Source of the DNA: Chlamydiota bacterium
GTDB taxonomy: Bacteria; Auribacterota; Tritonobacteria; UBA1439
Assembly: GCA_012729785.1 (NCBI GenBank)
Contig: JAAYCL010000044.1
Coordinates: forward strand, 34,752-98,751
DNA: 64,000 bases
Reading direction: 5' to 3'
The notes beneath the pieces are model-generated. The model did not search any database. It had not been told where the DNA came from and saw only the letters and a program-made list of their open reading frames with translations. Of this stretch, positions 9,209 through 26,770 are shown piece by piece (within the stretch, counting starts at the first letter, position 1; the number at the start of each line of letters is the position of its first letter). The position numbers and the translations under genes were made by a program.

Positions 9209-9212
9209 CCCC

Positions 9213-11547: not shown

Positions 11548-12765
11548 ATGGACCATCGCGACGAACATCGGCTCGCAGGGATAACCGGCGGGTCCCGCGC
11601 CCTCTGCGGGCCCGAACAGATCCATCTCGATCTCACCAACGCGTGCACACTGCGCTGCCTCTGCTGCTGGCACCGCTCGCCGCTCCTTGCCGCAGGGGAT
11701 ATTCCCCCCCACTGGTCGCCGGACCACCGTCTCTCGTACGAGACGGCCCTCGGCGTCATCGAGGACGCGGCGGCGATGGGGGTTCGGCGGATCATATTCA
11801 GCGGCGGGGGCGACCCCCTCTGCCACCCCCGCACGATGGACCTGCTCCGGGCCGCGGCGGAGAGGGGGCTGGAGACCACCCTCATCACCAACCTCGTTGT
11901 CGCCGGGGCGGAGACGATCCGAACGCTTGTCGAGGCGCGCCTCGGCAGGCTGGCGGTGAGTCTGTGGGCCGGCGACGAAAAGACGTACGCCGTGATGCAT
12001 CCGGGCGCGTCTTTCGGGACCTTCGGGAGGATCGTGGGGCTGCTCCGGGGCCTCGGGGCCCCCCTCCCTCCGGGACGCGGGCCGCAGCTCATCCTGACGC
12101 ACGTGCTGTGCGCGCGCAACGCCGGGAATATCGAGGCGATGGTGCGCCTTGCCGTGGAGCTCGGCGCGGGCCAGATCTGGTTCCAGCCGACGGATGTGGA
12201 GACGCCGCGTCTGAAGCCGCTCCTGCTGGGCCGGGCGGAGATCGCGGCCGTCGTCGCGTCGCTCGAAAACTGCGCCGCACGGTTCCGCCCCCTCCTGCGG
12301 CCCGGGCAGGAGGGGCTTCTCGACTTCAGCCTGCTCCTCGGAAAGCTTTCCAACAGCAGGGCCCACGAAGGGGTCTTCCACTCCGACGTGATCGACACGA
12401 TGCCCTGCTACATGGGTTGGTACGAGAGCCGGATACTCGCCAACGGCGACGTGGTTCCGTGCTGCAAGGCGGACCGTCTTCCGCTCGGTTCTGTGCGCGA
12501 GCGGCGCTTCCGCGACATATGGTTCTCGCCTGCGTACGACGAGTTCCGGAGGCGGGCGCTGACCCTCTCCAAGTCGGACCCGTACTTCGCGAAGATCCGG
12601 TGCGGGAAGTTCTGCGACGACTGGTGGCTGAATGCCATCGTCCACCGGTCGTACCTCGGCAGCCGCGCGCGGCCCGGCGGGAGGGACCGGCGCGGGCCGG
12701 CCAAACGGATCCTCTCCGCGTTTCTCAAACTGGCGGGTCGGCGGGGCGGGGAGGGGGGGGCGTGA
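11548..12765 (+). CDS. Radical SAM / SPASM-domain protein
   Basis: 405 aa with CxxxCxxC (LTNACTLRCLCC). The C-terminal Cys cluster (CYMGW...VVPCC...KIRCGKFC) is SPASM-like. Confidence 0.85.
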   Translation: MDHRDEHRLAGITGGSRALCGPEQIHLDLTNACTLRCLCCWHRSPLLAAGDIPPHWSPDHRLSYETALGVIEDAAAMGVRRIIFSGGGDPLCHPRTMDLLRAAAERGLETTLITNLVVAGAETIRTLVEARLGRLAVSLWAGDEKTYAVMHPGASFGTFGRIVGLLRGLGAPLPPGRGPQLILTHVLCARNAGNIEAMVRLAVELGAGQIWFQPTDVETPRLKPLLLGRAEIAAVVASLENCAARFRPLLRPGQEGLLDFSLLLGKLSNSRAHEGVFHSDVIDTMPCYMGWYESRILANGDVVPCCKADRLPLGSVRERRFRDIWFSPAYDEFRRRALTLSKSDPYFAKIRCGKFCDDWWLNAIVHRSYLGSRARPGGRDRRGPAKRILSAFLKLAGRRGGEGGA

Positions 12766-13907
12766 AGGTCGTCTTCATCGGGCTCAGCGGCTATGACCAT
12801 CCGTACGTGCGGGTGCGCTGCCACAACTTCGCGAAGCTGCTCAGGGAACGGGGGGTCGAGGCGGAGGTGCTCTCCTTCAAGGAGGCATTCTCCCCCTCGG
12901 TCGCGGACGACGGGATGCTCCGCCTCCGCGACCCGCAGAAGCTCGGGCAGACCCTGAGGGCGCTGTGCCGGCTGGCGGGGAAGCGGCGGGCGATCCTTTA
13001 CGTTCAGAAGGCGCACTGGCATGCGGCGGCGCCGTTCATCCTCCGGAGGTTGCGGCTCAACCGGTTCGTCCTCGACTACGACGATTGGGATCTCGACCGG
13101 TCGCCGTTCTTCGACCGGAAGCGGATGAACCGGCTGCTGTTCGGGGCCGACGGCGTGGAGCCGATCACGCGGCGGGTGGCCGCCGCGGCGGACGCGGTGG
13201 TGGCGTCCAGCGGGCCTCTCCTCGAGCTCATGCGGCGGTACAACCCCGCCGCGTTTCTCGTCCCGACCGGCGTCGACGAGAAGAGGTTCAGGAGGACGGG
13301 ACCTCCCCCCGAAGGCCCCGTCACCGCGGTCTGGTGCGGGAAGGTATGGGGGCGAGTGATCTACGAGAACCTCCGTTTTTGCGTCGACTGCGTGCTCGAT
13401 GCGCGGCGCGTCCATCCGTCCCTGCGGTTTGTCGTCGCCGGGGACGGCGCGTGGATGGGGAGGATCGAAGAGTATGTCCGGGAGCGGGGCGCGGGCGGTG
13501 TCGAGTTCGCCGGATGGATACACCCCGACCGGATGTCCGATTTCCTCTCGCGGGCGCACATAGGGCTCCTCCCGCTGGTCCCCGACGCCGAAAACTCCGA
13601 TTGGATGCGGTGCAAGAGCCCGACAAAGCTTTTCGAGTACATGGCCATGGAGATCCCCACCGTGGCCAGCAGGTACGGGGAGGCGGTATCCATCGTCGCC
13701 GACGGGCAGGAGGCGTTCCTCGCCTCGGAGAGGGGGGAGTTCGCCGCGAAGCTGGCCGCGCTCGCCGGGGACGCGGGCCTCAGGCGAGCGATGGGCTCGC
13801 GGGCTCGGCGAAGGGTGGAGGAGAGATACTGCCATCGGGTGATGGGGGACGCCCTGCTGGAGGCGGTCGAGTGCGCGGCCGGCCTCCGCGGTCGCCTCGG
13901 AGGCTGA
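12762..13907 (+). CDS. GT4-family glycosyltransferase
   Basis: GTG 12762 overlaps the upstream stop (GTGA). The C-terminal EIPTVASRYGEAVSIVADGQEAFL and overall GT-B layout match GT4. Confidence 0.8.
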   Translation: MKVVFIGLSGYDHPYVRVRCHNFAKLLRERGVEAEVLSFKEAFSPSVADDGMLRLRDPQKLGQTLRALCRLAGKRRAILYVQKAHWHAAAPFILRRLRLNRFVLDYDDWDLDRSPFFDRKRMNRLLFGADGVEPITRRVAAAADAVVASSGPLLELMRRYNPAAFLVPTGVDEKRFRRTGPPPEGPVTAVWCGKVWGRVIYENLRFCVDCVLDARRVHPSLRFVVAGDGAWMGRIEEYVRERGAGGVEFAGWIHPDRMSDFLSRAHIGLLPLVPDAENSDWMRCKSPTKLFEYMAMEIPTVASRYGEAVSIVADGQEAFLASERGEFAAKLAALAGDAGLRRAMGSRARRRVEERYCHRVMGDALLEAVECAAGLRGRLGG

Positions 13908-13984: not shown

Positions 13985-15547
13985 GTGAAAAGTCCGCGTG
14001 AACATGACGCAGTCTCGCCGGGCGGCCGCGGAACCGCACTGACGCTCTGCATCTGTTGCCTGCTGGTCGCGTACGGAAGTTTCTTTATCCTGCTCGACTA
14101 TCTCCAACCGTTTGCCGGCGTGTGGCGCAATCCGATCTCGGTGGAAACGCTCACCTTTGCGCAGACGGGGAAGAACCTCGCGCGAGGCAGAGGGTTCACC
14201 ACCGAGTGGATCCTCCCCGCAGCCCTGCGCTACGCGCAATCCTTGGCGCGGGTGCCCGATCTGTATAATCCGCCACTTTACCCGGCCCTTCTCGGGGTCT
14301 TCTTTGCCGTGTTCGGCGTTCATTTCCACTCCATACTCCTCTGCACGGGGGTGTTGTTTCTGGCAACCGGGGTGTGCATCTATTTCTTCGCACGAGACGC
14401 ATTCGGTCCCTATGCGGCGATAGCCGCGGCGGCACTCTTCCTCTCCAGCGCGCCGATGCGCTGGTACGTCATCAAGGGCGAGAACATAGCCCTGCTGGTG
14501 TTGTTAATGACGCTGCTGTTCTGGAAACTCTACAAAAGCCGGATGAGCGCCCCGCGGGACGCCATGCTGATCGGCGCGCTGGCCGGCATGTGCTATCTCA
14601 CCGCGTACCCGTACTGGGTCCTGCTGCTTCCCCTCTGCGCCTCCTGCCTCGCCTCTTCCGGGGAGCGGAGGGGCGGGAACGTCCTTGCGTTGCTCGGCGG
14701 ATTCTGCGCCGTCTCGGCGTGCTGGTGGCTCCGCAACGCCATCGTCACGGGGAATCCGTTCTTCACGCTCCGCCTGGGGGCCGGGATATACGGAAAGGCG
14801 TTCACATCCGCGCTCGAGTCGGTCCTCAAGAGCGTTGGGGACGTGCTCGCCCCGGGGGCCCGGATAAGAAACCTGCGATGGCAATCCGGCACCCTGGTCA
14901 CGATGTACGGCAACTGGCTGATCGTTCTCCTCATCGCCGCCGCCTTTTGGAAATGCGATGACGCGCGGATGCAGTGGACGCGGCGGGTGCTGTACGTTTC
15001 CTGGGCGGCGATCTGGATCCTCGTGGGAAGCTGGACGTCTGTCATCGGTCCCCTGGCGGCCCTCCCGTTCCTGCCCCTCGCGTGTATCATCGTATCGGGT
15101 TTCATGTTCCGCATCGCGACTGCGGTAAACCTTCGGCGCGTTTCCATCTGTATCGCCATCACGGCGGCACTGGTCGTCGTCAACACCGCTCCCCTCCCGT
15201 TCTGGATCTACCAGGGGGCGGCGCCCTACGAATGGCCCGCCAGCGCCTACCTCGACACGGTCCCGAAAGAAAAGGTCTTCTTCTCCGACATGGCGCTGCA
15301 AATCGCGTGGCTCAAGGACAGGCCGGCGGTCGAGATGCCGATGGATGCCGGGGAGTGCGCGAAGGTCGCCTCGATGGCTCCCGGTGGCGTGGCGGTGTAC
15401 ATGTCCCAGGACTTCGGCGACGAGTACGGGGCCTCCTCGGCCTTCTGGCTCGGGATCCACGCCGCGGCGCGAAACGGCGTTCTGAGCCGCACCTTGCCGG
15501 CGCGACGCGGGGAGTTGTTCGGGGACGGGGAATACCTCTTCTACTGA
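13985..15547 (+). CDS. Polytopic membrane protein, PMT_2/GT-C-like glycosyltransferase paralog
   Basis: GTG 13985, about 520 aa and 10 or more TM helices. The loop ETLTFAQTGKNLARGRGF resembles the EYHWLAKNLCRGRG motif of the 17439 gene. Confidence 0.6.
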   Translation: MKSPREHDAVSPGGRGTALTLCICCLLVAYGSFFILLDYLQPFAGVWRNPISVETLTFAQTGKNLARGRGFTTEWILPAALRYAQSLARVPDLYNPPLYPALLGVFFAVFGVHFHSILLCTGVLFLATGVCIYFFARDAFGPYAAIAAAALFLSSAPMRWYVIKGENIALLVLLMTLLFWKLYKSRMSAPRDAMLIGALAGMCYLTAYPYWVLLLPLCASCLASSGERRGGNVLALLGGFCAVSACWWLRNAIVTGNPFFTLRLGAGIYGKAFTSALESVLKSVGDVLAPGARIRNLRWQSGTLVTMYGNWLIVLLIAAAFWKCDDARMQWTRRVLYVSWAAIWILVGSWTSVIGPLAALPFLPLACIIVSGFMFRIATAVNLRRVSICIAITAALVVVNTAPLPFWIYQGAAPYEWPASAYLDTVPKEKVFFSDMALQIAWLKDRPAVEMPMDAGECAKVASMAPGGVAVYMSQDFGDEYGASSAFWLGIHAAARNGVLSRTLPARRGELFGDGEYLFY

Positions 15548-15578
15548 GGGGCGTCAATTCCACTCCGTCTTTGTGAGC

Positions 15579-16196
15579 ATGTCGCCTTCGATACGGCTTT
15601 GCAGGGTCTACCTTTCGCTGCTGCTGTGCATCGGCGCCGCCTTCGCGTTCGTGAACGCGGCCGGCTACGCGGCGAGACGCTATTGGATCCCTTCCCGCGT
15701 CAGATTCGCCGTGATCGAGGATTTCCTCTTCTCCATCAAGGCGGGGGATGCCGGGCACGCCATCGAGCTTCTGTCTCCCGAGACGACCGTCGTGACGGAC
15801 GAGGAGGGGGAGATCATCGGGCTTGCCGAGGGGGACTATTTTTGCTCCCTTCGCGAGCTCGCCCGCTGCGCCATCGATGATGAGTATCCAGAGGGGCAGA
15901 TGTTGAGAAATGGCGCTTTCCTGAAGGTGATCAGCCGCCGCGCGGTCTCCCTCGTCTCCGCCGATACGCCCTTCCCGTGGAACGGGACAGAGTACCTGCG
16001 CAGGAGCCGCCGGGAGAAGATCCACACGGTGACCGCCCATCTGCGCGAGAAGATCGGCGACGACAGGAGCTGGATATTCGGCCTCACCGAGCTCGAACGG
16101 CTCACGAAGGCGCGCCTGATTCCTGAAAGGATGCCCCCCCCCGTGGAGAGGGCGCGCGTGCTTTCAGGGATCGAAAGACAGATGGCGCATGACTGA
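15579..16196 (+). CDS. Hypothetical secreted protein (N-terminal signal peptide)
   Basis: ATG 15579. Hydrophobic N-terminus SIRLCRVYLSLLLCIGAAFAFVNA. No recognisable domain. Confidence 0.5.
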   Translation: MSPSIRLCRVYLSLLLCIGAAFAFVNAAGYAARRYWIPSRVRFAVIEDFLFSIKAGDAGHAIELLSPETTVVTDEEGEIIGLAEGDYFCSLRELARCAIDDEYPEGQMLRNGAFLKVISRRAVSLVSADTPFPWNGTEYLRRSRREKIHTVTAHLREKIGDDRSWIFGLTELERLTKARLIPERMPPPVERARVLSGIERQMAHD

Positions 16197-17307
16197 ACCG
16201 GAGAAGAGCGGTATTCCCACCCTCCACAAGTTTCTCATCGCAGCCCTGGTCTGTATCGCCGCCTTTGGCCTGCTGGAGAACGTCGCGCGTTTCTGCGAGG
16301 TCGAGGTGTACGACCCCTACTCCCTGAAACAGCAGTTCGCGGGGGACAGCGGGCACGGCGATTTTCTCGACCTCCATAGCAAGTTTATACGCGACCCGGA
16401 TCTGTTCTGGAAGATCAGGCCGCATTTCGGCCCCCTCTCCTACAACCATATCTCGGCCACGATGTACACGGAGACCACGAATTCGCGCGGTTTCCGCGGG
16501 AGCGAGGAATACGGTTCGAAGCCGGACGGCGTCTATAGGATCGTCTGCCTGGGGGATTCATGGACCTACGGGGTTATGGTCAACGACCATGAGACGTATC
16601 CGGCGCAGCTCTGCCAAGTGCTCAACGCCGAGTCGTCCCCTCGCCGCTTCGAGGTGCTGAATCTCGGATGCGTTGGCTACAGCTCGTACCAGGGGAAGGT
16701 ACTGCTCGCCAAGTACATCCGGCAGCTCGCCCCCGACCTGGTTACGATATGCTTCGGCGGCAATGACGCGAGACGGTCGAGGCTCTTTTCCGACAGGGAG
16801 CAGCCCCGGATAGGGGAATGGGTCATCCTTGTCCAGTCCATGCTCGGCAAGAGTCGGTTCTATCAAGTTTTCAGGAACCAACTTCTTGGGATAAAGAAAA
16901 GGGCGTCGTTGGGACGGGAGGGCGCCGCGCCGATTCAAGAGTGGCCGCAGCGGGTTTCCCCGGACGACTACGAGGCGAACATGAGGGAGATCATCTCCCT
17001 CGCGCGGCAGAACAACTGCGCGGTTGTCTTCCTCTTCTATCTCGGGACATGCCCCTGCAGGGACAGGCTCGAGAAACTCTCCGCGGAGACGGGTATTCCC
17101 CTTGTGGATGTCAACGAGATCCTGTGCAAGAACCCCGACTACGCGGTTAAGGATCTCTCGATCGATTACCCCCGGGATACCCACCCGAACGCGAGGGGAT
17201 ATTCGCTGATCGCCCGAAAACTGGAGGAGGTGGTGCGCGAGGTGGCCGACGGGAACCCCTACCCGGCTGCCCCCGCGCCGCCCCCCGAGAACAATCGCCG
17301 CCGCTGA
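16189..17307 (+). CDS. SGNH/GDSL-family hydrolase (probable glycan O-acyl esterase/transferase)
   Basis: Block I VCLGDSWTYG and a later GGND block. Has an N-terminal TM anchor and an 8-nt overlap with the upstream gene. Confidence 0.8.
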   Translation: MTEPEKSGIPTLHKFLIAALVCIAAFGLLENVARFCEVEVYDPYSLKQQFAGDSGHGDFLDLHSKFIRDPDLFWKIRPHFGPLSYNHISATMYTETTNSRGFRGSEEYGSKPDGVYRIVCLGDSWTYGVMVNDHETYPAQLCQVLNAESSPRRFEVLNLGCVGYSSYQGKVLLAKYIRQLAPDLVTICFGGNDARRSRLFSDREQPRIGEWVILVQSMLGKSRFYQVFRNQLLGIKKRASLGREGAAPIQEWPQRVSPDDYEANMREIISLARQNNCAVVFLFYLGTCPCRDRLEKLSAETGIPLVDVNEILCKNPDYAVKDLSIDYPRDTHPNARGYSLIARKLEEVVREVADGNPYPAAPAPPPENNRRR

Positions 17308-17438
17308 TCCCTCGGGTGTGCGCTCACCCGCCTTGCGGGAGGGGCCTGTCGGGAGGCTACACCGGGAGCGCGTGCATCGCTGCATCGCTGGTGGTATACT
17401 CGCGCGGATCAGGACCGCCCCATCGGGAGAAGGCATCC

Positions 17439-19517
17439 GTGAACCGCCTGAGCATCTATCTCCTTTTCCTTGTCCTCGGCTTCGTCGCGGCGTTGGCCGT
17501 GCGGATCTCCTTCACCGACGACCTGTCGGGGATGGACCTCTCCTGCGGCAACTACGACGGGATGGAGTACCACTGGCTCGCCAAGAATCTTTGCCGGGGC
17601 AGGGGCCTGCGCACCTTCTCGGAGGGCGGGTTCGACTATCGACTGCTCCGCCCCCCGGGCTACCCGCTCTTCATCGCCGCGGTGTACTGCATCTCGGGGA
17701 TGCAATTCCTCCACCTCAGGATCGCGGACGCCGTGCTCTCCGCCCTCAGCGCCGTTCTGGCCGCGCTCATCGCGCGCGAGCTCGCAGGGAGGAAGGCCGC
17801 CTGCATCGCCCTTCTCCTCGCGGCGCTCTACCGCCCGGCGGCCTTCTTCGCCACGCGCATCTTCTCGGAGAACCTCTTTTGCTTCCTGATGCTGCTCTCC
17901 CTCCTGCTCCTGATCCGCCGCGGGAACAGGCCGTGGGCATGCCTCATCGCGGGGGCGCTGTCGGGCGGGCTTGTGTTGACGAGGCCGGTGTGGCTCGGGG
18001 TGTTCCCATTCGTTCTCGCGTGGGTCGCCGCGGCGCGGGGCCGGCGGATCGTGCGGTCGGCGTGCCTCCTGCTCGGCCTTGCGGCGGCGACGGCGCCGTG
18101 GGCGGCCTACTGCCGCCTGACGCTCGGCATGCCGGTTTCCCCTGTCATCTTCTCGTCGTTGCGGGGCCTGTACAACACCTGGCTGGCCTACAACCCCGAG
18201 GCGGGCGATTTCACGCAGCGAGGGCCCGAGGAGGGGCGGGAACTGGAGCACGAGTGGGCGCAGTTGATGGCCCTTCGATTCAGGTATTGGCGGATGCCGG
18301 AGGCGGAGTACCTGGCGGCCGTCTCCGCGGAGACGTCGCGTTTCTTCCGGGCGGATCCGCGGCGGTGCCTCTCGCTCGGCGTGAAGAGGGTGTACCGCGC
18401 GTGGCTCGGTTCCGGCCTGCTTGACGGCCAGGGCACCGTCCTCCCCGACACGGGTGAGAATCCGTACGGGATCATATACTGGAAGAGACGGATCTTCGAT
18501 CCGGCCGTGTACCTCGGCGACACGGAGATCATCGAGCAGCTCCCGTTCAGCAGGGAACTCCGCATCCTCGGCGTCCGCGTCCCGCTGCTCTCCTTCGAAG
18601 GGGCATTCTACCTCATGGCCCTCGCCCTCCTCGCCTGCGCGGCGCTCAATGCGCGGCATCTCGCGGGGAAGACAGGAGAGGCGGTGCGAAGGTATTCCCT
18701 CTTCGTGCTGGTTGCCGCGGGGTACACGGCCGCCAACACGATCTCCGTCACCATGCAGCGATTTCGCTTCCCGCTGGAATACCTTATGATCGTCGTCGCC
18801 GGGGCGGGGATCGCCTGCGCGCTCTCGCCGCTCTTCCGCTTTGTATGCGCGGGGCTTCGAACCCTCGGATTCCGGATCGCCGGCGAGCCGGAAGGCCCCC
18901 CCCGTCGGTTGGCGTGTCGAGTCGCGCCGAACGCAGCCCTGCTCGCCGGGGCGGCCGTCGCGGCGGCGCTCGCCGCGAGGTGCTCGTGGAATCTTCACGG
19001 TTTCCGCGAGGCGGTGAGGGCGCAGTGCGCCGTGCGCGTTTCGGATGCCGACATCGAGGCCCGGATGGGTCGGGGCGCGCGGGAGGGGGGAGGCGGGCCG
19101 GGGTACAGGGAGGTCTGGAAGCGGCAGGTGGAGGGCGCCGGAAACCTCGGCGGGATATTGGGAAAGGAGATCCTATGGCGGGGCGAGGCCACGTGGATTA
19201 ACCCCCCCTCCCGGGCCGATTTCCAGGGCGAATACTACCTCCGTTCGGCGCAGGCGAGGTTCGTGTCGGAGATGGAGAACCCCGGCTTCTTCATGCTGAT
19301 CGTGGATTCCTACCGCGACCCAGACTCCATCGGCTCGGGAAGGGCGGTCGTCGTTGCGCCCGGTGGAACGGTCGAACGGCTTGCGGAGGGGGACCACATA
19401 GCCGTGCTCGGCAGGCTCGGGGGCACCGATTTTGTCGAGGGATCGATCATCGTATGCGCCGAGGAGATTCTTGTTTTGAGCGGAGGGCGCGCGCCACTCG
19501 GAGGGGAGCGCGGGTAG
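17439..19517 (+). CDS. GT-C membrane glycosyltransferase, PMT_2 (GT39/GT83-like) family
   Basis: GTG 17439 follows GGGAGAAGG. YDGMEYHWLAKNLCRGRGLRTF...PPGYPLFIAAVY is the first-loop DE/YH motif, with multiple TM helices. The C-terminal ~200 aa are soluble. Confidence 0.75.
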   Translation: MNRLSIYLLFLVLGFVAALAVRISFTDDLSGMDLSCGNYDGMEYHWLAKNLCRGRGLRTFSEGGFDYRLLRPPGYPLFIAAVYCISGMQFLHLRIADAVLSALSAVLAALIARELAGRKAACIALLLAALYRPAAFFATRIFSENLFCFLMLLSLLLLIRRGNRPWACLIAGALSGGLVLTRPVWLGVFPFVLAWVAAARGRRIVRSACLLLGLAAATAPWAAYCRLTLGMPVSPVIFSSLRGLYNTWLAYNPEAGDFTQRGPEEGRELEHEWAQLMALRFRYWRMPEAEYLAAVSAETSRFFRADPRRCLSLGVKRVYRAWLGSGLLDGQGTVLPDTGENPYGIIYWKRRIFDPAVYLGDTEIIEQLPFSRELRILGVRVPLLSFEGAFYLMALALLACAALNARHLAGKTGEAVRRYSLFVLVAAGYTAANTISVTMQRFRFPLEYLMIVVAGAGIACALSPLFRFVCAGLRTLGFRIAGEPEGPPRRLACRVAPNAALLAGAAVAAALAARCSWNLHGFREAVRAQCAVRVSDADIEARMGRGAREGGGGPGYREVWKRQVEGAGNLGGILGKEILWRGEATWINPPSRADFQGEYYLRSAQARFVSEMENPGFFMLIVDSYRDPDSIGSGRAVVVAPGGTVERLAEGDHIAVLGRLGGTDFVEGSIIVCAEEILVLSGGRAPLGGERG

Positions 19518-19518
19518 T

Positions 19519-21687
19519 ATGAACACGACAGCGAGAAGACACGCATGCCTCCTCCTCCTCCTCGTTCTGGTGGTGCTGTGCCATGCCCTCTGCAATTGGC
19601 GCTACCTCGCCGGCGATCTCTATCCCCAGCAGAAGGACGTTGCGGCGCACCTCAAGGTGTGCACGAAGTATCTCCTCCAGTCGAGGGACGCGATCCGCAG
19701 CGGCGCACCCCTGCTGGAGCGCTTCACGAGACTCGCCTCGCTCTTCCACCAGGAGAGCATACCGGTGGAGCACATATGGATTTGGCCCCGTCTTACCTAC
19801 GTGGTGACCGCGCCAGCTGCGGCCATCTGGGGTCTGACGCCGCGGGTGATCATCCTCTCGAACATCGTCTGGCTTGCGGTACTGCTCCTGTCGGTTTTCT
19901 CCATCGGATCGCGGTGCATGAGCCCCGAAGCGGGATTCATGGCGGCGCTCATCACCTCGTTGTTTCCCGCGACCTACGGCCTCTCAAGGAATTACGGTCT
20001 CGACTTCTCCCTGATGGGGATTGCCGCGCTCGCCGTCTACTGGCTTATCAGGACGGAGGCCTTTTCCCGGAGGGCTCCGTCGATCGTCTTCGGTTGCGTG
20101 TTCGGCATCGGGCTTCTGGTGAAGGTGCAGCTTCTCATCTTCCTCTGCGGCCCGCTCCTCTTCGCGCTCGTGTGCGGGTGGCGTCGGTCGCGCGATCGGG
20201 GGATCACCGCCGGGAGGGTGTTCGCGAACGTCGCGCTCGCGGGTCTCGCCGCGCTGCTTCTCTCGATTCCATTCTGGTGGGGAAACATCGACAACATCGC
20301 GGCGGTGTTCATCCGGCACGCCGAGGCGCGCGACGGCATCGACCCGCACCACCTCTCCGTGCCCGTGATGAGCGCCCGATACTTCGCATACTACCTCGTG
20401 GCGGCGATCGTCTACGTTTCGCCGCCGCTGTTCGCGCTCGGGGTTCTGCTCCTCCCGGTGTTCATCCTCTCCCGCTTCAAGGCGAGGGCGGTCGTACTCC
20501 TCTGGGCTCTTGTGCCGTACGCGATGTTCACCCTCATCGAGTTGAAGTACTCCGTATTCTATCTGTCGAGCCTCCCCGCGGTCGGCGTGGTCATCGGTGC
20601 GGGGCTCGCGTCCCTCAGGACGAGGGCGCTGAAGTACTTTCTGTGTGCCGCCGCCGCTGGGTGGGGCCTCATCCACTTTCTGCAACTCTCGTTCGCCGTT
20701 GGCCCTCCGCCATACAGAGGTTGCAGGCCGTATTCGAGCGATGCTTTGCGTGCGGACGGCTACCCCGTTTGGGCGCACCCGGCCTTCCCCAACAACCTGG
20801 AGAGGGTCGCGCGGAGGTTTATCGAAGAGATCGGCTCCCACGAACGAGGGAACAGGTATGTGCGGATCGGCGTCTGCGAATTCGAGTATTCGAACAAGGA
20901 TTACCTGCTCGTCGACTCGCTCGAATACTTCATGGAGTCGGTGAATCCCGCTGTCTATGTGTTCCGGAGCCACTTTTCAACCGACTCGTTCCTGGAGTGC
21001 ATGGACAGTTTCAACTACCTCGTTGTCCTGGAGGAGGGAGACAAGCCTATGCCGGACTTCCGGCGGTTTGAGGAGTACTTCAGCAACGGCAGCGGCGCCT
21101 CTCTCTGCGCGAAGTATCTGAATGGTCCCGCGACCCTCGCGCGACTCATCGAGAGCTACCGAAGGTACGAACTCCTCGACCGCGAGCTATTGTACCCTGA
21201 CGGCGTCAGCGCGTTCCTGATGCGAAAGCCCCCCTTCCCCGTGGAGGACGACGCCGTCATCCCCGCCGCGCATCTGGTGAGCGCCAACGTCTTCATCGCC
21301 TGGCCCCGGATCGGCGTGGACGAACGGCTGCGGCGCCCTCCGACGATCGGCGACTACGACGTCCTCTTCCCGTACGACCTCGAGTTCCCGCTCGTGCCGC
21401 CCGCCCGCCGGGACCCGTCCGAGCCCTACTTCGCCCGGTACCGCCTCTCCTTTGAGCGGGGAGGGACGTACGCGCTTTCCATCAAACTCAAGGATCGGGA
21501 GGCGTCGCCTCCTCGTGCCTCCGTGAACGGGAAGCCCGTCATCGGACGCCATCCGCGGGAAGCGAACGGCGGGATGAAGCGCATCGGATCGTTCCGCGTT
21601 CAGGCGGGGGTGGGCGAGGTGGAGCTCCTCGGGGACGAGTATTTTTCCGTCACAGAGCAGCTTCGAATCACGAGGGAGGGGGAGTAG
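19519..21687 (+). CDS. Polytopic membrane protein with large C-terminal soluble domain (GT-C-like)
   Basis: 722 aa. The ATG overlaps the previous stop (TAGTATG). About 11 TM helices in the first 400 aa. Confidence 0.7.
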   Translation: MNTTARRHACLLLLLVLVVLCHALCNWRYLAGDLYPQQKDVAAHLKVCTKYLLQSRDAIRSGAPLLERFTRLASLFHQESIPVEHIWIWPRLTYVVTAPAAAIWGLTPRVIILSNIVWLAVLLLSVFSIGSRCMSPEAGFMAALITSLFPATYGLSRNYGLDFSLMGIAALAVYWLIRTEAFSRRAPSIVFGCVFGIGLLVKVQLLIFLCGPLLFALVCGWRRSRDRGITAGRVFANVALAGLAALLLSIPFWWGNIDNIAAVFIRHAEARDGIDPHHLSVPVMSARYFAYYLVAAIVYVSPPLFALGVLLLPVFILSRFKARAVVLLWALVPYAMFTLIELKYSVFYLSSLPAVGVVIGAGLASLRTRALKYFLCAAAAGWGLIHFLQLSFAVGPPPYRGCRPYSSDALRADGYPVWAHPAFPNNLERVARRFIEEIGSHERGNRYVRIGVCEFEYSNKDYLLVDSLEYFMESVNPAVYVFRSHFSTDSFLECMDSFNYLVVLEEGDKPMPDFRRFEEYFSNGSGASLCAKYLNGPATLARLIESYRRYELLDRELLYPDGVSAFLMRKPPFPVEDDAVIPAAHLVSANVFIAWPRIGVDERLRRPPTIGDYDVLFPYDLEFPLVPPARRDPSEPYFARYRLSFERGGTYALSIKLKDREASPPRASVNGKPVIGRHPREANGGMKRIGSFRVQAGVGEVELLGDEYFSVTEQLRITREGE

Positions 21688-21723
21688 TTCCCGGCGATCC
21701 GCCTGTGGGGGTATGGCGCACGA

Positions 21724-23376
21724 TCACTGGCTTCCCTGCCGCGGCGGGTTCATGATCCTCTCGGAGTATTCGATGCACCTCTGCCGCCACCGCTCAAGCT
21801 CTCCCATCTCATCGGCTGGATCGAACGTCCGCTCGCGTTCCTCCGGCGTGGGAAGGTCGAGGTCCGCGGGCGTCATGAGAGGGTAGCGCCGCCGGTAGTC
21901 GGTATAGAGGCCGGGGTCGCATGCTGTGGAGAGATCCTTTCTGAACTGGCGCAGCACCGCCTCCCGCTGCGCGACGAGCGGGCCGGGAGCGAACGGTTTC
22001 TGCGCGCGCCACATATCCGGTGCGCCGATGATGTAGGCGCGGAATGCCATCATCAGGTAGAAATTCCACAGCACGAGGATGACGACGGCCGCTCTCAGGG
22101 CGAGCCAAGCCGCCCTCCCGCGCCGCGCGAGCATGAAGACGACCGACAGGCCGTACGCGAACACGAACGTGTAGTCGGACTGGTACCGCGCGCCGAACGA
22201 ATTGCCCATGTGCCACCCCGGAAAGCAGCCCGAGAACCATACGTCCGCGAGAAGGATGTAGCAGCAGATCCACGGCCACGGCGACGCGCGCCCTTCCCGC
22301 CTGATCCCCAGGATCATTCCCGCCGTGGCGACCAGTGCGAGGGGCGTCCAGACGAAGAGCCCGCAGAGGGGACTGAACAGCACATGGAGGAAAAACTTTG
22401 AGTACGGGTACAGGGGTTCCCTGAAGCGCCCGTAGGTGTTGAGCAGCCACTCGCCGTACATGGACCGCCACACGAGCATTTGCGGGAGAAACCCGATGAT
22501 GTACCCCGCGCCGATGACGCCGAGGGAGGAGAGCGCGCTGGGCCGGAAGCCCCGCCCGATGCCCGTCCCTTCGCGCGCGCGCCGCCACCCCTCGTGGACA
22601 CACGCGATGAGGGGGACGGGCATGATCAGCAGATTGTTGAACCTGATCGAACAGCAGACCCCCCCGGAAATCCCGACCAGAAGCGGCAGGAGAGGGCGAA
22701 AGGTGCCCCCCGCGCGCCCTTTCAGGTCCTCGTGCCACCGGGCGCAGAGGAGGAGGTAGAGAGTGACCCCTGCGAACGAGATGACGTGCGTCCAGGCGTT
22801 CTGGAAGATGAGGTAGAAGCCGAGGGAGAGGCCGAGGACCGTGGCCGCCACCGCCGCGGCGGCGACCTTCGGGGGCCTTCCGAGCCGCCGGAGCAGTGCG
22901 TACCCGGCTGCGATCCCGGCGAACGACCAGGAGAGCATCCCGAGCTTGTACGCCCAGAGGTAGACCGCCGCGAACCGGTGCACCTCCGGGCCCCCGCACG
23001 ATTCGTAGAGCGACGCCGCAAGCCGGGCGGCGAGGAGGAACGGGAGGGTCAGGAGCGCGGTCCCGAAACCGACCTTCGAGTGCATCGGCATGTCGGGCTG
23101 GGCGAAATAGTCGCCGTAGTAGAGGCCGTTCATTAATTTCCCTACAGGGCCGAAGGCGATGAACCTGAACTGGTCGGTGAGGTCCGCGTCCCCGTCGAAC
23201 GCGAGCGAGTGGGCGAAGGCGTAGTAGAACGCCTCGTCCGACCACTGCAAAAACGGAACGACGACCTCCGCGTTGCGTCTCTCGAGGAAGTTGAGGAGGT
23301 CGATATGGGCGACGGCGGCAAAGAGGAGCGCGAGAACTACCCCCGCACCCCGTTTCTCCGTGAGCCAGCGGGCCAT
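21724..23376 (-). CDS. Polytopic membrane protein, PMT_2/GT-C-like
   Basis: Loop motif QWSDEAFYYAFAHSLAFDGD (DE..Y..A), then about 12 TM helices. Start set at MARW (23376) because the extended -10 TGcTATGAT encompasses the alternative ATG at 23409. The alternative start 23409 remains possible. Confidence 0.6.
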   Translation of the reverse strand: MARWLTEKRGAGVVLALLFAAVAHIDLLNFLERRNAEVVVPFLQWSDEAFYYAFAHSLAFDGDADLTDQFRFIAFGPVGKLMNGLYYGDYFAQPDMPMHSKVGFGTALLTLPFLLAARLAASLYESCGGPEVHRFAAVYLWAYKLGMLSWSFAGIAAGYALLRRLGRPPKVAAAAVAATVLGLSLGFYLIFQNAWTHVISFAGVTLYLLLCARWHEDLKGRAGGTFRPLLPLLVGISGGVCCSIRFNNLLIMPVPLIACVHEGWRRAREGTGIGRGFRPSALSSLGVIGAGYIIGFLPQMLVWRSMYGEWLLNTYGRFREPLYPYSKFFLHVLFSPLCGLFVWTPLALVATAGMILGIRREGRASPWPWICCYILLADVWFSGCFPGWHMGNSFGARYQSDYTFVFAYGLSVVFMLARRGRAAWLALRAAVVILVLWNFYLMMAFRAYIIGAPDMWRAQKPFAPGPLVAQREAVLRQFRKDLSTACDPGLYTDYRRRYPLMTPADLDLPTPEERERTFDPADEMGELERWRQRCIEYSERIMNPPRQGSQ

Positions 23377-23413: not shown

Positions 23414-23465
23414 CACAGCCGGTGCTACATTAAGGGCCGGGTCAATGGCTGCGGTTGCGGCCCGA

Positions 23466-23474
23466 TGGTATACT
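23466..23474 (+). promoter_or_regulatory. Candidate extended -10 (TGgTATACT) giving a leaderless or short-leader transcript of the ARH-family gene
   Basis: The -10 ends 6 nt before ATG 23481. Confidence 0.3.
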
Positions 23475-23480
23475 GTTCGC

Positions 23481-25682
23481 ATGAGACGGTCCACGCGTGT
23501 GCTCTGCCTCCTCCTGTTCGTCGGGGGTTTTCTCGCCGCGCCCCCTCCCACCGGATGCGCCGGCGCGAAAACGTTCTCCATCTCCAGGTCCGACTATCTC
23601 GAGAAGGTGCACGGCTGGTGGATGGGGAAGCTGATCGGCGTGACGCTCGGGGGGCCGTTCGAGTTCCGCATGCCCTGGCCGCCGAAGGAGGTCACGGGCT
23701 ACGTCTTCGACGCCCCCGTAGCCGATTACTTCGGCGACAACGACGACCTGTACGTCGGCATGGCGTACCTGCTCGCCCTCGATCGGCACGGGGCCGGGGT
23801 GACGCAGGTACAGATGGCAGCCGAGTTTTTCCGCCGTCTGGAGCCGCGACGCCTCTGGATGGCGAATCAGCGCGCGTATATGAACCTCGCCGCCGGGCTC
23901 GCCCCTCCGAAGACCGGCCACCCGGTTTTCAACGAATGCTCCTGGGCAATCGACGCGCAGATAGAAAACGACGTCTGGGGCGTCGTCTGTCCCGGGATGA
24001 TCGACACCGCCTGCCGTTATGCCGACCTCGCCGCGCATGTCACCAACCACGCCGACGGGGCGTACGGCGGTCTCTTCACGGCGGCACTGGCGAGCGGCGC
24101 CTTCGCGGAACGCGATGTCGAAACGCTCGTCGAAACGGCGCTCGCGAAACTGCCCCCCTCCTGCGACTACGCGGAGGCCGTGCGGGACGTCATCGCATGG
24201 CATCGGGAGGAACCCGGCGACTGGAAGAAGACGCGGGAGCGGATCCGGAGTAAGTGGCAGGTGGAGAGGGGGCACAGGGACGAGTCGGCGGTGGTCAACG
24301 GCGCGGCCGTCGTGACGGCGCTGCTCTATGGCGGCGGTGATTTCGATACAACCGTCAGGATAGGGACAATGGCGGGGTGGGATACCGATTGCAACGCGGC
24401 GTCGGCGGGGGGGATCCTCGGGATCATCCTCGGTGCCAAAGGGATCCCGCCACAATGGAACATCTTCCACGACCGCTACAAGAATATCTCGCTTCGAAAC
24501 CTCCCGATGTGGATGACGATCACGGGGCTCGCCGAGTGGACCGCCGCGCTCGGGGAGAGGACGATTGCCGCGCACGGCGGGCGGCTCGACGGCGACCGCC
24601 TCGTGATCCCGCGGAGGAAGCCGGCCACCCCGTGTGCGGCGGGGACGTCCGTGCCCGGCGGTCCGCGCCGGGATGAGGAGTGGAATCCCCTCCGCGTCGA
24701 GAAGCTCGCGCTCGACCTTCGGCTCTGGAATCCCGATCTGGATCTTTGGAACTGCATCGCCGACGGGACGACGGGTCTGAGCCGGGAGTTCAAGGGGAAA
24801 CGGCACGTCTTCAGGACGGTCCCGGGCCCGACGCAGGGGCCGTGCGTGCTGATCTTTCCGGACGTCGCCCCTCCAGATGGGCGAGAGGAGATTTTGCTGG
24901 AGATCTCCGCGTGCAGCGGCGACGCCCCCTGGGACCTCTCCGTGGCGGCGGGGGAGAGGGAATTGGGGCGCGTCAGAGTGGGGAAGGAAGCCCCGGCGGG
25001 GTTTCGGGCGACCACGATTGTGCCGCGCCGCGGCGAGGATATCATCCTGTACCCGGCGGAGGACGGCTCCACCTACCTCGACCAGAAGCTCACCCGCCTC
25101 GCCCAGCCGTCGCCGTCATTCAACCCGGCGGCGAAACCCGTCCCGCTCCGCATCCGCTCCGCGCAGAACAATGTGAACCTCTTCAGATATGGCGGGAAGT
25201 GCCCTCCGGGCAAGCCCGAGATACGCGCGTACTACATCCTCACGGAGTGGACGGACAGCCCCTATCCCGTCGCCTGGCTCTCCCCCGGCGACCCACATCC
25301 GTACGGCTGCTACTGGCCGAAGGAACACGTCCCCGACCTCCCCCTCCAGGAGCCCAAGCAGATCAAGTTGAGGATACAGGCCGAAGAGGAACTTCCCGCC
25401 ATACCCGAGGGGGGAAAGTTCGTCCTCGTGCACGATGAGGGCAACGCGACGGTGATCTCGCTTCCGCGGGTATCCACGAAGCCGACGCCGTGGCACCGGC
25501 TGCGCTTCGATCTCACGCCGTACCTGGCGTTGCGGCCGCGGGTCGAGGTCCGGAGCACGCCGGCCGTCGGGGAAGGGAGGGGGGAGGCGTTCTGGGAGTA
25601 CGTCAGGATTGTCAGGAGGCCCGTCTCCACCGTGGACGGCGGCGCAAACGGTCAAACCCCTTCCGACCGCCGGCAGAGGTAG
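23481..25682 (+). CDS. ADP-ribosylglycohydrolase-family protein (secreted/lipoprotein) with ~350-aa C-terminal extension
   Basis: Signal peptide with possible lipobox (LLFVGGFLAAPPPTGC). The ARH signature GWDTDCNAASAGGILG and a GDNDDLY acidic cluster are present. Confidence 0.75.
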   Translation: MRRSTRVLCLLLFVGGFLAAPPPTGCAGAKTFSISRSDYLEKVHGWWMGKLIGVTLGGPFEFRMPWPPKEVTGYVFDAPVADYFGDNDDLYVGMAYLLALDRHGAGVTQVQMAAEFFRRLEPRRLWMANQRAYMNLAAGLAPPKTGHPVFNECSWAIDAQIENDVWGVVCPGMIDTACRYADLAAHVTNHADGAYGGLFTAALASGAFAERDVETLVETALAKLPPSCDYAEAVRDVIAWHREEPGDWKKTRERIRSKWQVERGHRDESAVVNGAAVVTALLYGGGDFDTTVRIGTMAGWDTDCNAASAGGILGIILGAKGIPPQWNIFHDRYKNISLRNLPMWMTITGLAEWTAALGERTIAAHGGRLDGDRLVIPRRKPATPCAAGTSVPGGPRRDEEWNPLRVEKLALDLRLWNPDLDLWNCIADGTTGLSREFKGKRHVFRTVPGPTQGPCVLIFPDVAPPDGREEILLEISACSGDAPWDLSVAAGERELGRVRVGKEAPAGFRATTIVPRRGEDIILYPAEDGSTYLDQKLTRLAQPSPSFNPAAKPVPLRIRSAQNNVNLFRYGGKCPPGKPEIRAYYILTEWTDSPYPVAWLSPGDPHPYGCYWPKEHVPDLPLQEPKQIKLRIQAEEELPAIPEGGKFVLVHDEGNATVISLPRVSTKPTPWHRLRFDLTPYLALRPRVEVRSTPAVGEGRGEAFWEYVRIVRRPVSTVDGGANGQTPSDRRQR

Positions 25683-26746
25683 CAGACGCCGGCCCTCTCC
25701 CCGATCTGCGCGAGCCGTGCCCGGGTGCAGATCGCACGCGCGCTCGTGTAGAAGTCGTTGTTCCAGATGGCGCCGAAGCGCTCCTTCCGAAGATCGCCGA
25801 AGACGGCCTGCGGAAAGTTCGGGTAGTAGCAGCAGGGCGAGACGCTCCCGTCGCAGTTGATCGACGCCGATCGGTACAGCCAGGGACAGACCCGTTTGGC
25901 CCGCTCCGCGCGCAGGTCGACGCCCGCCTCCAGGTCATACTGGCGGTAGCGGGGGATCGTGGAGACCCACTTCTCGAGCAGGTCCCTCCTCGACGGATCG
26001 ATGTTCCCGACGGGGGTGAAGGTCAGGTAATCCACCCCGATCTCCCGCGCCGTTTTTCGGGCAAGGTCGATCTGGTGTTCGTTGTGCCGCATCACGATGA
26101 ACTTCCACTCCACCAGCGGCGCGCGGCGGCGGAGCCGCCGCTTCTTCTCCACGATCCGCACGATGTTCTCCCTGACGAGCCCGAAGTCCCCGCCGACGCG
26201 AAACTCCGCGTACGCCTGCTGATCCGCCCCGTCGAGCGAGACCTCCAGGTAGTCGAGGCCCGACTCGACGACCTCCTCCGCGAAGCCGTCCTTTGCGATG
26301 TTCAGGTTGGAGCTGATCATGGTGCCGAGGTTTCGTTCCCGCGCGTACCGTATCATCCGAAAGATGTCCGCGGCGAGGAACGGTTCCCCCTGCCCGTAGA
26401 GAAGGACGCAGAAGAGAAAGGGGGCGAGCTCGTCGATGAGCTGCGCGTACAGGTCGAACGGCATCGAGCCGAGCACCGCCTTCTCCGCGCCCTTCACCTG
26501 GCAGTAGCCGGTGACCTGGGGGCAGAGCGGGCAGCGCAGATTGCAGCGGTTCGTCGGCTCCACCTTGATGAAGTACGGGAGACCGCGGAGCGTGCGCCTC
26601 CGCAGCAGCATCTCCGCCTCCACGAGGGCGATGTTGCGCAGCTTGGCGGGGGTCATGTGGCGCAGCGCGAGCCGGAGGAGGACCTTCAGCTTCCGCACGT
26701 CCTCCTGGACGTTCAACTGCACCGGATTCAATCGGTGTATCCGCAT
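25652..26746 (-). CDS. Radical SAM / SPASM-domain protein
   Basis: CxxxCxxC (EPTNRCNLRCPLC). SPASM-like C-terminus CPWLYRSASINCDGSVSPCC...CTRARLAQ...CYLC. Confidence 0.85.
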   Translation of the reverse strand: MRIHRLNPVQLNVQEDVRKLKVLLRLALRHMTPAKLRNIALVEAEMLLRRRTLRGLPYFIKVEPTNRCNLRCPLCPQVTGYCQVKGAEKAVLGSMPFDLYAQLIDELAPFLFCVLLYGQGEPFLAADIFRMIRYARERNLGTMISSNLNIAKDGFAEEVVESGLDYLEVSLDGADQQAYAEFRVGGDFGLVRENIVRIVEKKRRLRRRAPLVEWKFIVMRHNEHQIDLARKTAREIGVDYLTFTPVGNIDPSRRDLLEKWVSTIPRYRQYDLEAGVDLRAERAKRVCPWLYRSASINCDGSVSPCCYYPNFPQAVFGDLRKERFGAIWNNDFYTSARAICTRARLAQIGERAGVCYLCRRSEGV

Positions 26747-26770
26747 GGGGCGTGCCCGGCGCCGTCCGCC

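Follow-up and report, generated by a model that had tools for sequence, protein, structure and literature searches.

A surface-glycan island in an Auribacterota genome with eight divergent GT-C membrane proteins and five candidate polyprenyl-phosphate sugar synthases

The DNA analysed here is a stretch of 64,000 nucleotides, referred to below as the window, from contig JAAYCL010000044.1 (positions 34,752 to 98,751 of the forward strand) of assembly GCA_012729785.1. The assembly is deposited as a Chlamydiota bacterium and is placed by GTDB in Auribacterota, a candidate phylum of the PVC (Planctomycetes-Verrucomicrobia-Chlamydiae) group. The window is closely packed, with about 45 genes, and is one continuous surface-glycan biosynthesis island, forming the core of an island of more than 84 kb. 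It contains eight full-length proteins supported as members of the glycosyltransferase C (GT-C) superfamily, six glycosyltransferase family 2 (GT2) and two family 4 (GT4) genes, and an exporter of the Wzm/Wzt type belonging to the ATP-binding cassette (ABC) transporters. Class I methyltransferases, two GDSL/SGNH proteins, a nucleotide-sugar block and 13 radical S-adenosylmethionine (SAM) genes make up much of the remainder. An earlier reading, made from the letters without database searches (the sequence-only reading), had proposed that GT-C paralogs have expanded here, that Dpm1-like GT2 synthases supply them with lipid-linked sugars, and that the resulting periplasmic glycosylation sits alongside ABC-dependent polymer export.

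The G+C content of the window is about 66%. Because of this high G+C content, long spurious open reading frames (ORFs) overlap all of the real genes, and analysis of G+C at third codon positions was unable to resolve the strand. The gene set was therefore fixed by Pfam matches and by gene calls on identical DNA in public assemblies; the start of the gene at 17439, rather than 17316, follows those calls. The nine membrane ORFs named by the sequence-only reading all exist, and all are polytopic by hydropathy, with 8-12 hydrophobic segments in the full-length proteins and four in the fragment. They are as follows.

2549-5401, plus strand: Agl23-family protein of the GT-C/PMT_2 fold with a C-terminal NHL beta-propeller, 950 residues; PMT_2 54.1 bits
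13985-15547, plus strand: GT-C (PMT_2) membrane glycosyltransferase, 520 residues; PMT_2 44.6 bits; 12 hydrophobic segments
17439-19517, plus strand: GT-C (PMT_2) membrane glycosyltransferase, 692 residues; PMT_2 36.2 bits
19519-21687, plus strand: GT-C (PMT_2) membrane glycosyltransferase with a long C-terminal soluble part, 722 residues; PMT_2 35.9 bits
21724-23376, minus strand: GT-C-fold protein of a rare family without a Pfam model, 550 residues; AlphaFold (AF2) model and PDB fold matches
33491-35173 (alternative start 33470), plus strand: divergent, lineage-restricted PMT_2-related GT-C protein, 560 residues; PMT_2 20.0 bits, E 8e-4, sub-threshold
40151-42178, plus strand: GT-C (PMT_2/TMTC-like) protein with a C-terminal galactose-binding-like domain, 675 residues; PMT_2 19.3 bits, E 1.4e-3, sub-threshold
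49246-49692, plus strand: truncated N-terminal copy of a polytopic membrane protein, 148 residues as called (148-165); similarity to a right-flank protein
49800-52073, minus strand: GT-C-fold glycosyltransferase (YfhO/PTPS_related/DUF6311-like) with a C-terminal CBM32 domain, 757 residues; AF2 model and PDB fold matches

PF13231 and PF02366 were the Pfam families by which the membrane proteins were to be checked. The gathering threshold of PMT_2 (PF13231) is 26.1 bits; four of the proteins pass it, those at 33491 and 40151 fall below it, and PF02366 is matched by none. The 2549 protein is placed further by the Agl23 model TIGR03663, on which it reaches 333.4 bits (cut-off 126.25), with residues 28-516 aligned to positions 3-431 of the 435 in the model. 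None of the other eight named membrane proteins matches TIGR03663. The 2549 protein has 12 hydrophobic segments, and its propeller of about 300 residues is marked by an NHL score of 149 bits and by NHL propeller matches in the PDB. The protein identical to 13985-15547 is called 'glycosyltransferase family 39 protein' at NCBI, which is a name and not a test; a scan of genome contigs with 13985 found no relative. In 19519-21687, the 11 hydrophobic segments all lie ahead of residue 392.

Two proteins were placed by structure. For 21724-23376, Pfam gave no match, and sequence and profile searches of the PDB gave none either; its homologues number only 17 among 5.8 billion clusters, and one of these carries PF13231. 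Its AF2 model, built from the alignment of its homologues, is largely a helical bundle (predicted local distance difference test, pLDDT, 81; predicted template-modelling score, pTM, 0.86). The top 25 Foldseek matches in the PDB are all GT-C proteins, at probability 1.0 and template-modelling (TM) scores of 0.29-0.48, with ArnT at the top and Pmt4, AglB, STT3, AftA, ALG3, ALG12, AftB and Emb among the others. Distant homologues elsewhere lie in tandem GT-C arrays or adjoin GDSL genes. The membrane domain of 49800-52073 is likewise without a Pfam match, and PDB sequence searches matched only its CBM32 part (F5_F8_type_C, 54 bits at residues 632-748). Its AlphaFold model (pLDDT 80, pTM 0.83), likewise built from a homologue alignment, is again largely a helical bundle, for which the leading Foldseek matches in the PDB are exclusively GT-C proteins, namely AftD (E 7.5e-10), DPY19, STT3, AftA, AglB, PglB and ArnT, together with CBM32 modules for the C-terminus. 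The homologues of this protein bear PF10131, PF19830, PF09586 and PF09913 (PTPS_related, DUF6311, YfhO and DUF2142), which we take to be members of the GT-C clan.

The two sub-threshold proteins are linked to PMT_2 by their families. The 33491 protein has only nine homologues, one of them an 84%-identical orthologue with PF13231, and the profile of this family matches 17439 (E 1.3e-6) and 13985 (E 3.8e-6) over the PMT_2 region; sequence and profile searches of the PDB found nothing for the family. The 40151 protein was examined in a set of 25 sequences from a search among 1.8 billion representatives: the protein itself, the three full-length sequences closest to it and 21 that are homologous to its membrane domain. 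PMT_2 occurs in 15 of the 25 and PMT in three, and most are fused to tetratricopeptide repeats (TPR), the TMTC-type architecture. The C-terminal domain of 40151 matches proteins bearing AGA-YXIM_GBD. The short ORF 49246-49692 has no Pfam match and shares 34% identity over 161 residues (E 4e-25) with the N-terminus of L012:3566-5092 (minus strand), a full-length paralog of 508 residues and nine hydrophobic segments located just right of the window.

The proteins at 2549, 13985, 17439, 19519, 21724, 33491, 40151 and 49800 are thus supported as members of the GT-C superfamily; the structural comparison covers 21724-23376 and 49800-52073, and the other six are placed by Pfam and profile links. PMT_2/GT-C membership, which had been claimed or suspected for all nine ORFs, is borne out by Pfam, fold and profiles for the eight full-length proteins and not for the truncated 49246-49692. 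The stretch from 13985 to 23376, where the expansion had been located, takes in only four of the eight genes. The opposing assignment, to O-antigen ligases, polymerases or transporters, is rejected, as no such family was matched; the sole transport-related assignment is Agl23, for 2549-5401.

How the eight proteins are related to each other bears on the expansion itself. In all-against-all BLASTP and phmmer comparisons (a database of 12 sequences), the sole clearly related pair is 13985 and 17439, with 27% identity over 169 residues by BLASTP and E 4e-9 by phmmer. All other pairs have E > 1e-4. Profiles reach somewhat deeper: hhalign gives a probability of 95% for the 21724 and 49800 families, the 49800-family profile matches 40151 at E 7e-7, and the 33491 family shows weak hhalign probabilities, 31-55%, with the 21724 and 49800 families. 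At the sequence level, the proteins can hardly be recognised as related to one another; therefore, they are better described as an assembly of distinct lineages, and the term 'paralog expansion' is misleading. To judge from these comparisons, the island gathers distinct, anciently diverged GT-C lineages, with no local duplication burst. The 21724 and 33491 families appear nearly confined to this bacterial lineage.

The first-loop motif said to be common to the membrane proteins is partly confirmed. An acidic pair or triplet soon after the first transmembrane helix can be read in seven of the nine, for example HHDES in 2549 and YDGMEYH in 17439. Of the four alignable families, three have invariant or almost invariant acidic residues here. 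D54 is invariant in 22 homologues of the 49800 family; the first loop of the 33491 family has the invariant residues D43, R46 and D47; and one Asp of a DED triplet is near-invariant in the 40151 alignment. The 21724 family shows an SDE after the first transmembrane helix only in its majority consensus, and not among the listed conserved columns.

The second group of enzymes comprises the six GT2 genes, all of which match PF00535.

1554-2330, minus strand: GT2, Dpm1/AglJ/PpgS-like candidate polyprenyl-phosphate sugar synthase; PF00535 59 bits; AglJ, PpgS and dolichyl-phosphate (Dol-P)-hexose transferase are the top matches
28306-29331, minus strand: GT2 of another subtype, MftF/EpsD-like, with a C-terminal hydrophobic region; NCBIfam MftF 144 and EpsD 110 bits
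30805-31980, minus strand: GT2, candidate polyprenyl-phosphate sugar synthase; PF00535 98 bits; AglJ 155, Dol-P-hexose transferase 92 and ArnC 50 bits
48373-49104, plus strand: GT2, candidate Dpm1/ArnC-like synthase; PF00535 92 bits; PDB matches PfDPMS (E 1.6e-18) and ArnC
61711-62466, plus strand: GT2, candidate Dpm1-like synthase; PF00535 108 bits; NCBIfam AglJ, PgfS, PpgS and ArnC
62987-63691, minus strand: GT2, candidate Dpm1/ArnC/GtrB-like synthase; PF00535 113 bits; PDB matches PfDPMS (E 3.6e-15), ArnC and GtrB sll0501

All six had been taken to be of the Dpm1 type. Five are Dpm1-like, and 28306-29331, which matches PF00535, Glyco_tranf_2_3 and Glyco_trans_2_3 in Pfam, belongs with MftF and EpsD. 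The NCBIfam top matches of the five (1554, 30805, 48373, 61711 and 62987) are among AglJ, PpgS, Dol-P-hexose transferase, PgfS and ArnC, which are enzymes that load sugar onto polyprenyl phosphate. In the three that were run against the PDB (30805, 48373 and 62987), PfDPMS, the Dol-P-mannose synthase of Pyrococcus, comes first, followed by ArnC/GtrB, over a catalytic domain of about 200 residues; for 30805-31980, the top entry is 5mlz (E 2e-15), and ArnC is aligned across residues 12-310. A DAD(L/N)(Q/S/E) signature is present in three of the five, as DADLQ, DADNSH and DADLE, embedded in FDADLQFMPEE in 48373-49104 and in MDADNSHDPKY in 61711-62466. A DAD-type motif is familiar from Dpm1, GtrB and ArnC. 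As for anchoring, 30805-31980 has four to five C-terminal hydrophobic segments, and 48373 has one C-terminal segment. The five are most likely polyprenyl-phosphate sugar synthases of the Dpm1/GtrB/ArnC type, that is, makers of lipid-linked donors.

Polymer synthesis and export are represented by the following genes.

336-1529 and 12762-13907: GT4 genes, Leloir enzymes
8348-9208, plus strand: Wzm-like ABC-2 permease; PF01061 (ABC2_membrane) 44 bits
9213-11513, plus strand: Wzt/TagH-like ABC ATPase, 766 residues; PF00005 (ABC_tran) and Alpha-L-AF_C

The top PDB matches of the ATPase are TarH, Aquifex Wzt, TagH and mycobacterial RfbE, and in NCBIfam it matches ATPases of teichoic acid and galactan exporters. 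The ABC-dependent pathway is therefore present (PF01061 and PF00005), as had been read from the sequence; its combination with extracytoplasmic glycosylation is in itself nothing unusual (PMC11127046). Past its nucleotide-binding domain, the ATPase continues for about 500 residues, including an Alpha-L-AF_C-like beta-sandwich. The carbohydrate-binding domains of characterised Wzt proteins are much smaller, at about 150 residues.

A lipid-linked sugar made in the cytoplasm would have to cross the membrane, and here the 2549 protein assumes a special position. The model that it matches bears the name "flippase activity-associated protein Agl23"; Agl23 of Haloarcula is a putative Dol-P-hexose flippase partnering the synthase Agl22, and in proteoliposomes the purified archaeal protein moved a lipid-linked oligosaccharide across the membrane (PMC11182771). 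Since 2549-5401 is a strong member of the Agl23 family, one of the 'transferases' may be the missing flippase: on sequence grounds it may act as a polyprenyl-phosphate-sugar flippase, as a transferase or as both. A gene for a flippase of the MOP family (Polysacc_synt, Wzx-type) lies just left of the window. The gaps 52074-52553 and 62467-62986 were inspected for a GtrA-like flippase, and none was found there.

The arrangement of the genes and its conservation tie the synthases to the GT-C proteins. GT2 1554 is divergently transcribed from the Agl23-like 2549, and GT2 30805 and the operon containing 33491 are likewise divergent. In L006, a relative metagenome-assembled genome (MAG) that retains much of the island at 52-84% identity, the orthologue of 49800 follows immediately after that of GT2 48373, on the same strand. 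Orthologues in L006 are full-length, with 78-80% identity for the GT2 enzymes and 54-63% for the GT-C proteins. In the fetched stretch of L006, no orthologue of 40151 or of 36300-37844 is found between their conserved neighbours. When genome contigs were scanned with the 49800 family, two MAGs were found. Compared with L006:9210-12259, the GT-C gene at 49800 is inverted in the window, and the truncated 49246-49692 stands between it and GT2 48373, which suggests a local rearrangement of the 48373-52073 region. The organism itself is common: proteins identical to those of the window are present in 236-314 assembly blocks, wastewater samples among them, and on a 1.74-Mb contig. Auribacterota are inferred to be anaerobic fermenters, and the account from which this is taken mentions neither glycosyltransferases nor radical SAM enzymes (PMC9324843). 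The envelope of the host is presumably of the Gram-negative type.

The folds, the family memberships, the clustering and the conservation of these parts lead us to propose a model in two layers. The island would direct the synthesis of an ABC-exported surface glycan, to which several modules of the three-component type would attach more sugars outside the cytoplasm; on balance we hold this to be probable. In the cytoplasmic layer, the Leloir glycosyltransferases (GT4 336-1529 and 12762-13907, and GT2 28306-29331) would build a lipid-linked polymer from nucleotide sugars supplied by the island's own genes (43860-48358), and the Wzm/Wzt ABC transporter (8348-11513) would export it. In the second layer, the five Dpm1/GtrB/ArnC-like GT2 enzymes would work at the cytoplasmic face and charge polyprenyl phosphate with single sugars. 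The lipid-linked sugars would then be flipped by the Agl23-like 2549-5401, by the left-flank MOP flippase or by both. Finally, the eight divergent GT-C proteins would transfer the sugars to the glycan once it is exported, and possibly to proteins as well, at the outer face of the cytoplasmic membrane. The C-terminal NHL, CBM32 and galactose-binding-like domains, found in three of the eight GT-C proteins, plausibly hold the acceptor. The identity of the donors, the acceptor, the flipping step, the topology and a single product shared by all modules are what we infer in drawing this scheme. Its central element, polyprenyl-phosphate-sugar synthases feeding extracytoplasmic GT-C proteins beside a Wzm/Wzt-type exporter, was already part of the sequence-only reading and fits every test run.

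Two genes flanking GT-C genes may add a further activity.

16189-17307, plus strand: GDSL/SGNH protein within the GT-C block; Lipase_GDSL_2 74 bits; candidate extracytoplasmic glycan O-acyl transferase or esterase
32247-33494, plus strand: second GDSL/SGNH protein; weak AlgX-type match; directly upstream of 33491

Their positions suggest that extracytoplasmic O-acylation may be coupled to the action of the GT-C proteins.

A number of observations weigh against the two-layer model. The GT2 scores, 38-155 bits, are far under the NCBIfam equivalog cut-offs of 325-529 bits, so that sugar specificity is not fixed, and the use of polyprenyl phosphate as the acceptor is read from the class of the best matches only. 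Four of the five Dpm1-like enzymes are without a clear membrane anchor; in 1554, 61711 and 62987 the only hydrophobic segment is a weak internal one. For 13985 and 19519, the acidic first-loop motif cannot be read with certainty. By Pfam, no GtrA, SMR or MATE flippase is found among the roughly 45 called genes, and neither an initiating phosphoglycosyltransferase nor a ligase was found in the window, small ORFs not having been searched exhaustively in either case. Because a Wzx-type flippase is also present, the island may make more than one glycan. Lastly, the model does not explain the roles of the 13 radical SAM enzymes.

The same genes can be arranged differently. In one arrangement, which follows the mycobacterial assembly of arabinan and mannan, several GT-C proteins act in series to build the whole polymer, or long branches, from polyprenyl-phosphate monosaccharides in the periplasm, and the ABC transporter supplies a primer only. 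The numbers favour it, as the eight GT-C proteins, with up to seven more candidates in the flanks, exceed the Leloir enzymes (two GT4 and one non-Dpm1 GT2). The arabinofuranosyltransferase AftD is the top fold match of 49800-52073, AftA and Emb are among the other GT-C fold matches, and Emb and AftD, which bear carbohydrate-binding modules (CBMs), are polymer builders (PMC11127046). However, elongating and decorating GT-C proteins are indistinguishable at TM-scores of 0.4-0.5, and Pfam scans found neither a decaprenyl-phosphoribose (DPPR) synthase nor a UbiA-type donor enzyme in the window. Periplasmic polymerisation also overlaps largely with the two-layer model; as a separate scheme, we regard it as rather unlikely. 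A different acceptor is envisaged if some or most of the GT-C proteins are O-glycosyltransferases like PMT and TMTC, or C-glycosyltransferases like DPY19, which modify secreted or envelope proteins with donors from the Dpm1-like enzymes. Such a role would agree with the Pfam family, PMT_2, with the GT39 name given by NCBI to 13985, with the mostly PMT_2-plus-TPR (TMTC) architecture of the homologues of the 40151 membrane domain, and with DPY19 and STT3 among the fold matches of 49800-52073; NHL propellers, for their part, bind proteins in many contexts. Yet the window proteins lack TPR, and none matches PF02366 PMT, MIR or PMT_4TMC, even at E up to 10, which leaves the protein O-mannosylation of the sequence-only reading, in its strict PMT (GT39) sense, without support. 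The genes lie, moreover, in the midst of polysaccharide genes, with an ABC glycan exporter among them, and two of the C-terminal domains are carbohydrate-binding (CBM32 and galactose-binding-like). PMT_2 also takes in transferases with non-protein acceptors, such as ArnT, which is the top fold match of 21724. Protein glycosylation in this broader sense seems to us very unlikely.

It could also be asked whether several of these proteins are transferases at all, rather than GT-C-like flippases or scramblases of lipid-linked sugars, or decaying remnants. The 2549 protein is a confident member of the family of Agl23, the archaeal example of which flips a lipid-linked glycan when purified (PMC11182771), the window has no GtrA-type flippase, and 49246-49692 is an evident truncated copy. 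In contrast, the other seven proteins are full-length and do not match TIGR03663; orthologues of 21724, 33491, 40151 and 49800 are conserved in other lineages, and in these four families the acidic residues of the first loop, a typical feature of catalytic GT-C proteins, are retained. We consider it highly improbable that the explanation extends to several of the eight.

The two-layer model has close counterparts among known systems. The addition of side-chain sugars to O antigens by extracytoplasmic three-component systems is established (PMC11127046). In such systems, represented by the Gtr type that glucosylates O antigens, by Citrobacter ORF12/14/15 with GT136, and by CsbB/GtcA/YfhO of Gram-positive bacteria, a polyprenyl-phosphate-monosaccharide synthase, a flippase and a GT-C protein act together on an exported glycan. 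The island has the corresponding parts in five GtrB/Dpm1-like GT2 enzymes, eight GT-C proteins (two with carbohydrate-binding domains) and a Wzm/Wzt exporter. In Citrobacter GT136, a C-terminal CBM binds the acceptor polymer, and Emb and AftD are also CBM-bearing (PMC11127046). The differences are of several kinds. Three-component systems are single three-gene modules, whereas the island has at least five synthases and eight transferases; their small flippase (GtrA/SMR/MATE) is not found in the window, where the Agl23-NHL protein and the flanking MOP protein are the candidates; two of the island's GT-C families are without a Pfam model and have almost no relatives outside the lineage; and 13 radical SAM genes are interleaved.

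A second counterpart is the synthesis of arabinogalactan, lipoarabinomannan and phosphatidylinositol mannosides in mycobacteria (Emb, AftA-D, PimE and mannosyltransferases with Ppm1, and the galactan exporter Wzm/Wzt), where likewise many GT-C proteins of one organism use polyprenyl-phosphate sugars outside the cytoplasm and extend a polymer that starts from an ABC-exported primer. RfbE/Wzt is among the matches of the island's ATPase, and AftD, AftA and Emb are among the fold matches of its GT-C proteins, which show 10-17% sequence identity to the mycobacterial enzymes. The island differs in belonging to a PVC-group phylum, in that genes for DPPR synthase and DprE were not found, and in that its genes lie in one contiguous island. 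Mycobacterial GT-C genes are spread over several loci. The archaeal Agl22/Agl23 system of Haloarcula hispanica resembles the left end of the window, where 2549-5401 and the divergent AglJ/Dol-P-hexose-transferase-like GT2 1554 mirror the synthase and flippase pair (PMC11182771). Here, the host is a bacterium, and 2549-5401 is fused to an NHL beta-propeller. We know of no NHL fusion in the archaeal Agl23 prototype. The eukaryotic and bacterial protein O-mannosyltransferases PMT and TMTC (GT39 and GT105) share with the island a PMT_2-type membrane domain, an acidic first-loop motif so far as it can be read and, through 40151, TMTC-like homologues; they differ in the PF02366, MIR and TPR domains that the window proteins lack, in the polysaccharide context and in the carbohydrate-binding type of the C-terminal domains. 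The logic of the system is that of the established three-component systems and, on a larger scale, of the mycobacterial GT-C network; the island is set apart by the number and mutual divergence of its GT-C proteins, by an Agl23-NHL fusion where a GtrA-type flippase would be expected, by two families without a Pfam model and by the interleaved radical SAM genes.

Eight GT-C proteins in about 45 genes and 64 kb are, by general knowledge and not by computation, far above what is usual in a bacterial genome. If the two-layer model is true, the island would be among the densest single-locus collections of extracytoplasmic GT-C modules known to us outside Actinobacteria, in an uncultured PVC-group phylum. 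At least two of its GT-C families, with no Pfam model and 9-17 detectable relatives, are candidates for new glycosyltransferase families. Whether proteins of the Agl23 type flip lipid-linked sugars could be clarified with the Agl23-NHL fusion of this bacterium, which lies next to a Dpm1-like synthase. The organism is found widely in metagenomes of wastewater and digesters, and its surface glycan may matter for the behaviour of flocs and biofilms. Nothing known is overturned by the island.

The radical SAM genes are distributed as follows; eight of the 13 have a B12-binding domain.

5476-7227 (plus), 26771-28300 (minus), 29351-30799 (minus), 36300-37844 (plus): B12-binding radical SAM
53651-55063, 56193-57566, 57563-59008, 59002-60429 (all plus): B12-binding radical SAM
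11548-12765 (plus), 25652-26746 (minus), 55070-56161 (plus): SPASM-type radical SAM
39082-40143 and 52554-53633 (both plus): other radical SAM

None of the 13 proteins reaches an NCBIfam equivalog cut-off; their top matches are HpnJ, BchE, ApyD and a P-methyltransferase family. At least one more B12-binding radical SAM gene lies in the right flank. The 29351-30799 protein has a full-length match to HpnJ, with 376 bits against a cut-off of 578, and its gene sits between GT2 28306-29331 and the membrane-anchored Dpm1-like GT2 30805-31980. In hopanoid synthesis, HpnJ acts on a lipid-attached amino sugar. The location of an HpnJ-like gene between two GT2 genes suggests radical chemistry on a lipid-linked sugar. 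By extension, radical SAM enzymes might remodel the polyprenyl-phosphate donors while these are lipid-linked, and the lineage-specific GT-C proteins would then transfer the modified sugars; we offer this as a conjecture, quite unlikely as it stands. If true, it would be an anaerobic, radical-chemistry counterpart of the tailoring of lipid-linked donors by DprE1/E2 or ArnD, and the lineage-specific GT-C proteins would found new CAZy families.

The island runs at least 10 kb past the window on either side (L014:16147-21194 at the left and L012:4-6792 at the right). The flanks encode seven more polytopic proteins, of 466 to more than 675 residues. Three are at the left (L014:16147-17835, L014:17963-19798 and one starting at L014:19795), one a PMT_2 protein and two without a Pfam match; of the four at the right (L012:4-1698, 1977-3617, 3566-5092 and 5083-6792), three have no Pfam match and one, of 675 residues and cut by the end of the locus, weakly matches DUF6020 (E 8e-4). 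Besides the Wzx/MOP flippase, the flanks encode a polysaccharide deacetylase, methyltransferases and a GT2-methyltransferase fusion.

The nucleotide-sugar block (43860-48358, plus strand) comprises three epimerases or reductases of the short-chain dehydrogenase/reductase type, a nucleotidyltransferase and a GHMP kinase. The kinase matches HddA, a heptose-7-phosphate kinase, best (130 bits; cut-off 600), which points to a heptose-type or other unusual GDP-sugar; a GmhA-like isomerase was not seen. Also in the island, 42250-43776 (plus strand) encodes a PurH-like AICARFT/IMPCHase paralog with 106 bits in Pfam and 154 bits in NCBIfam. Because the latter is well under the equivalog cut-off of 402, the protein is probably something other than the housekeeping PurH; it is kept at 72% identity in L006. 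Between the GT-C block and a radical SAM operon, 23445-25682 (plus strand) encodes a protein of 745 residues with an N-terminal ADP-ribosylglycohydrolase domain (150 bits, residues 57-336) and no NCBIfam match.

The ORFs 25490-28369 (plus), 29321-31039 (plus), 36309-38024 (minus) and 43773-45251 (minus) gave no matches and are antisense or out-of-frame artefacts. Two more, 60440-61765 (plus) and 60348-61772 (minus), are also without matches and are artefacts of the high G+C content; the true gene at their site is the following.

60426-61706, plus strand: FAD/NAD-binding amine-oxidase-like oxidoreductase

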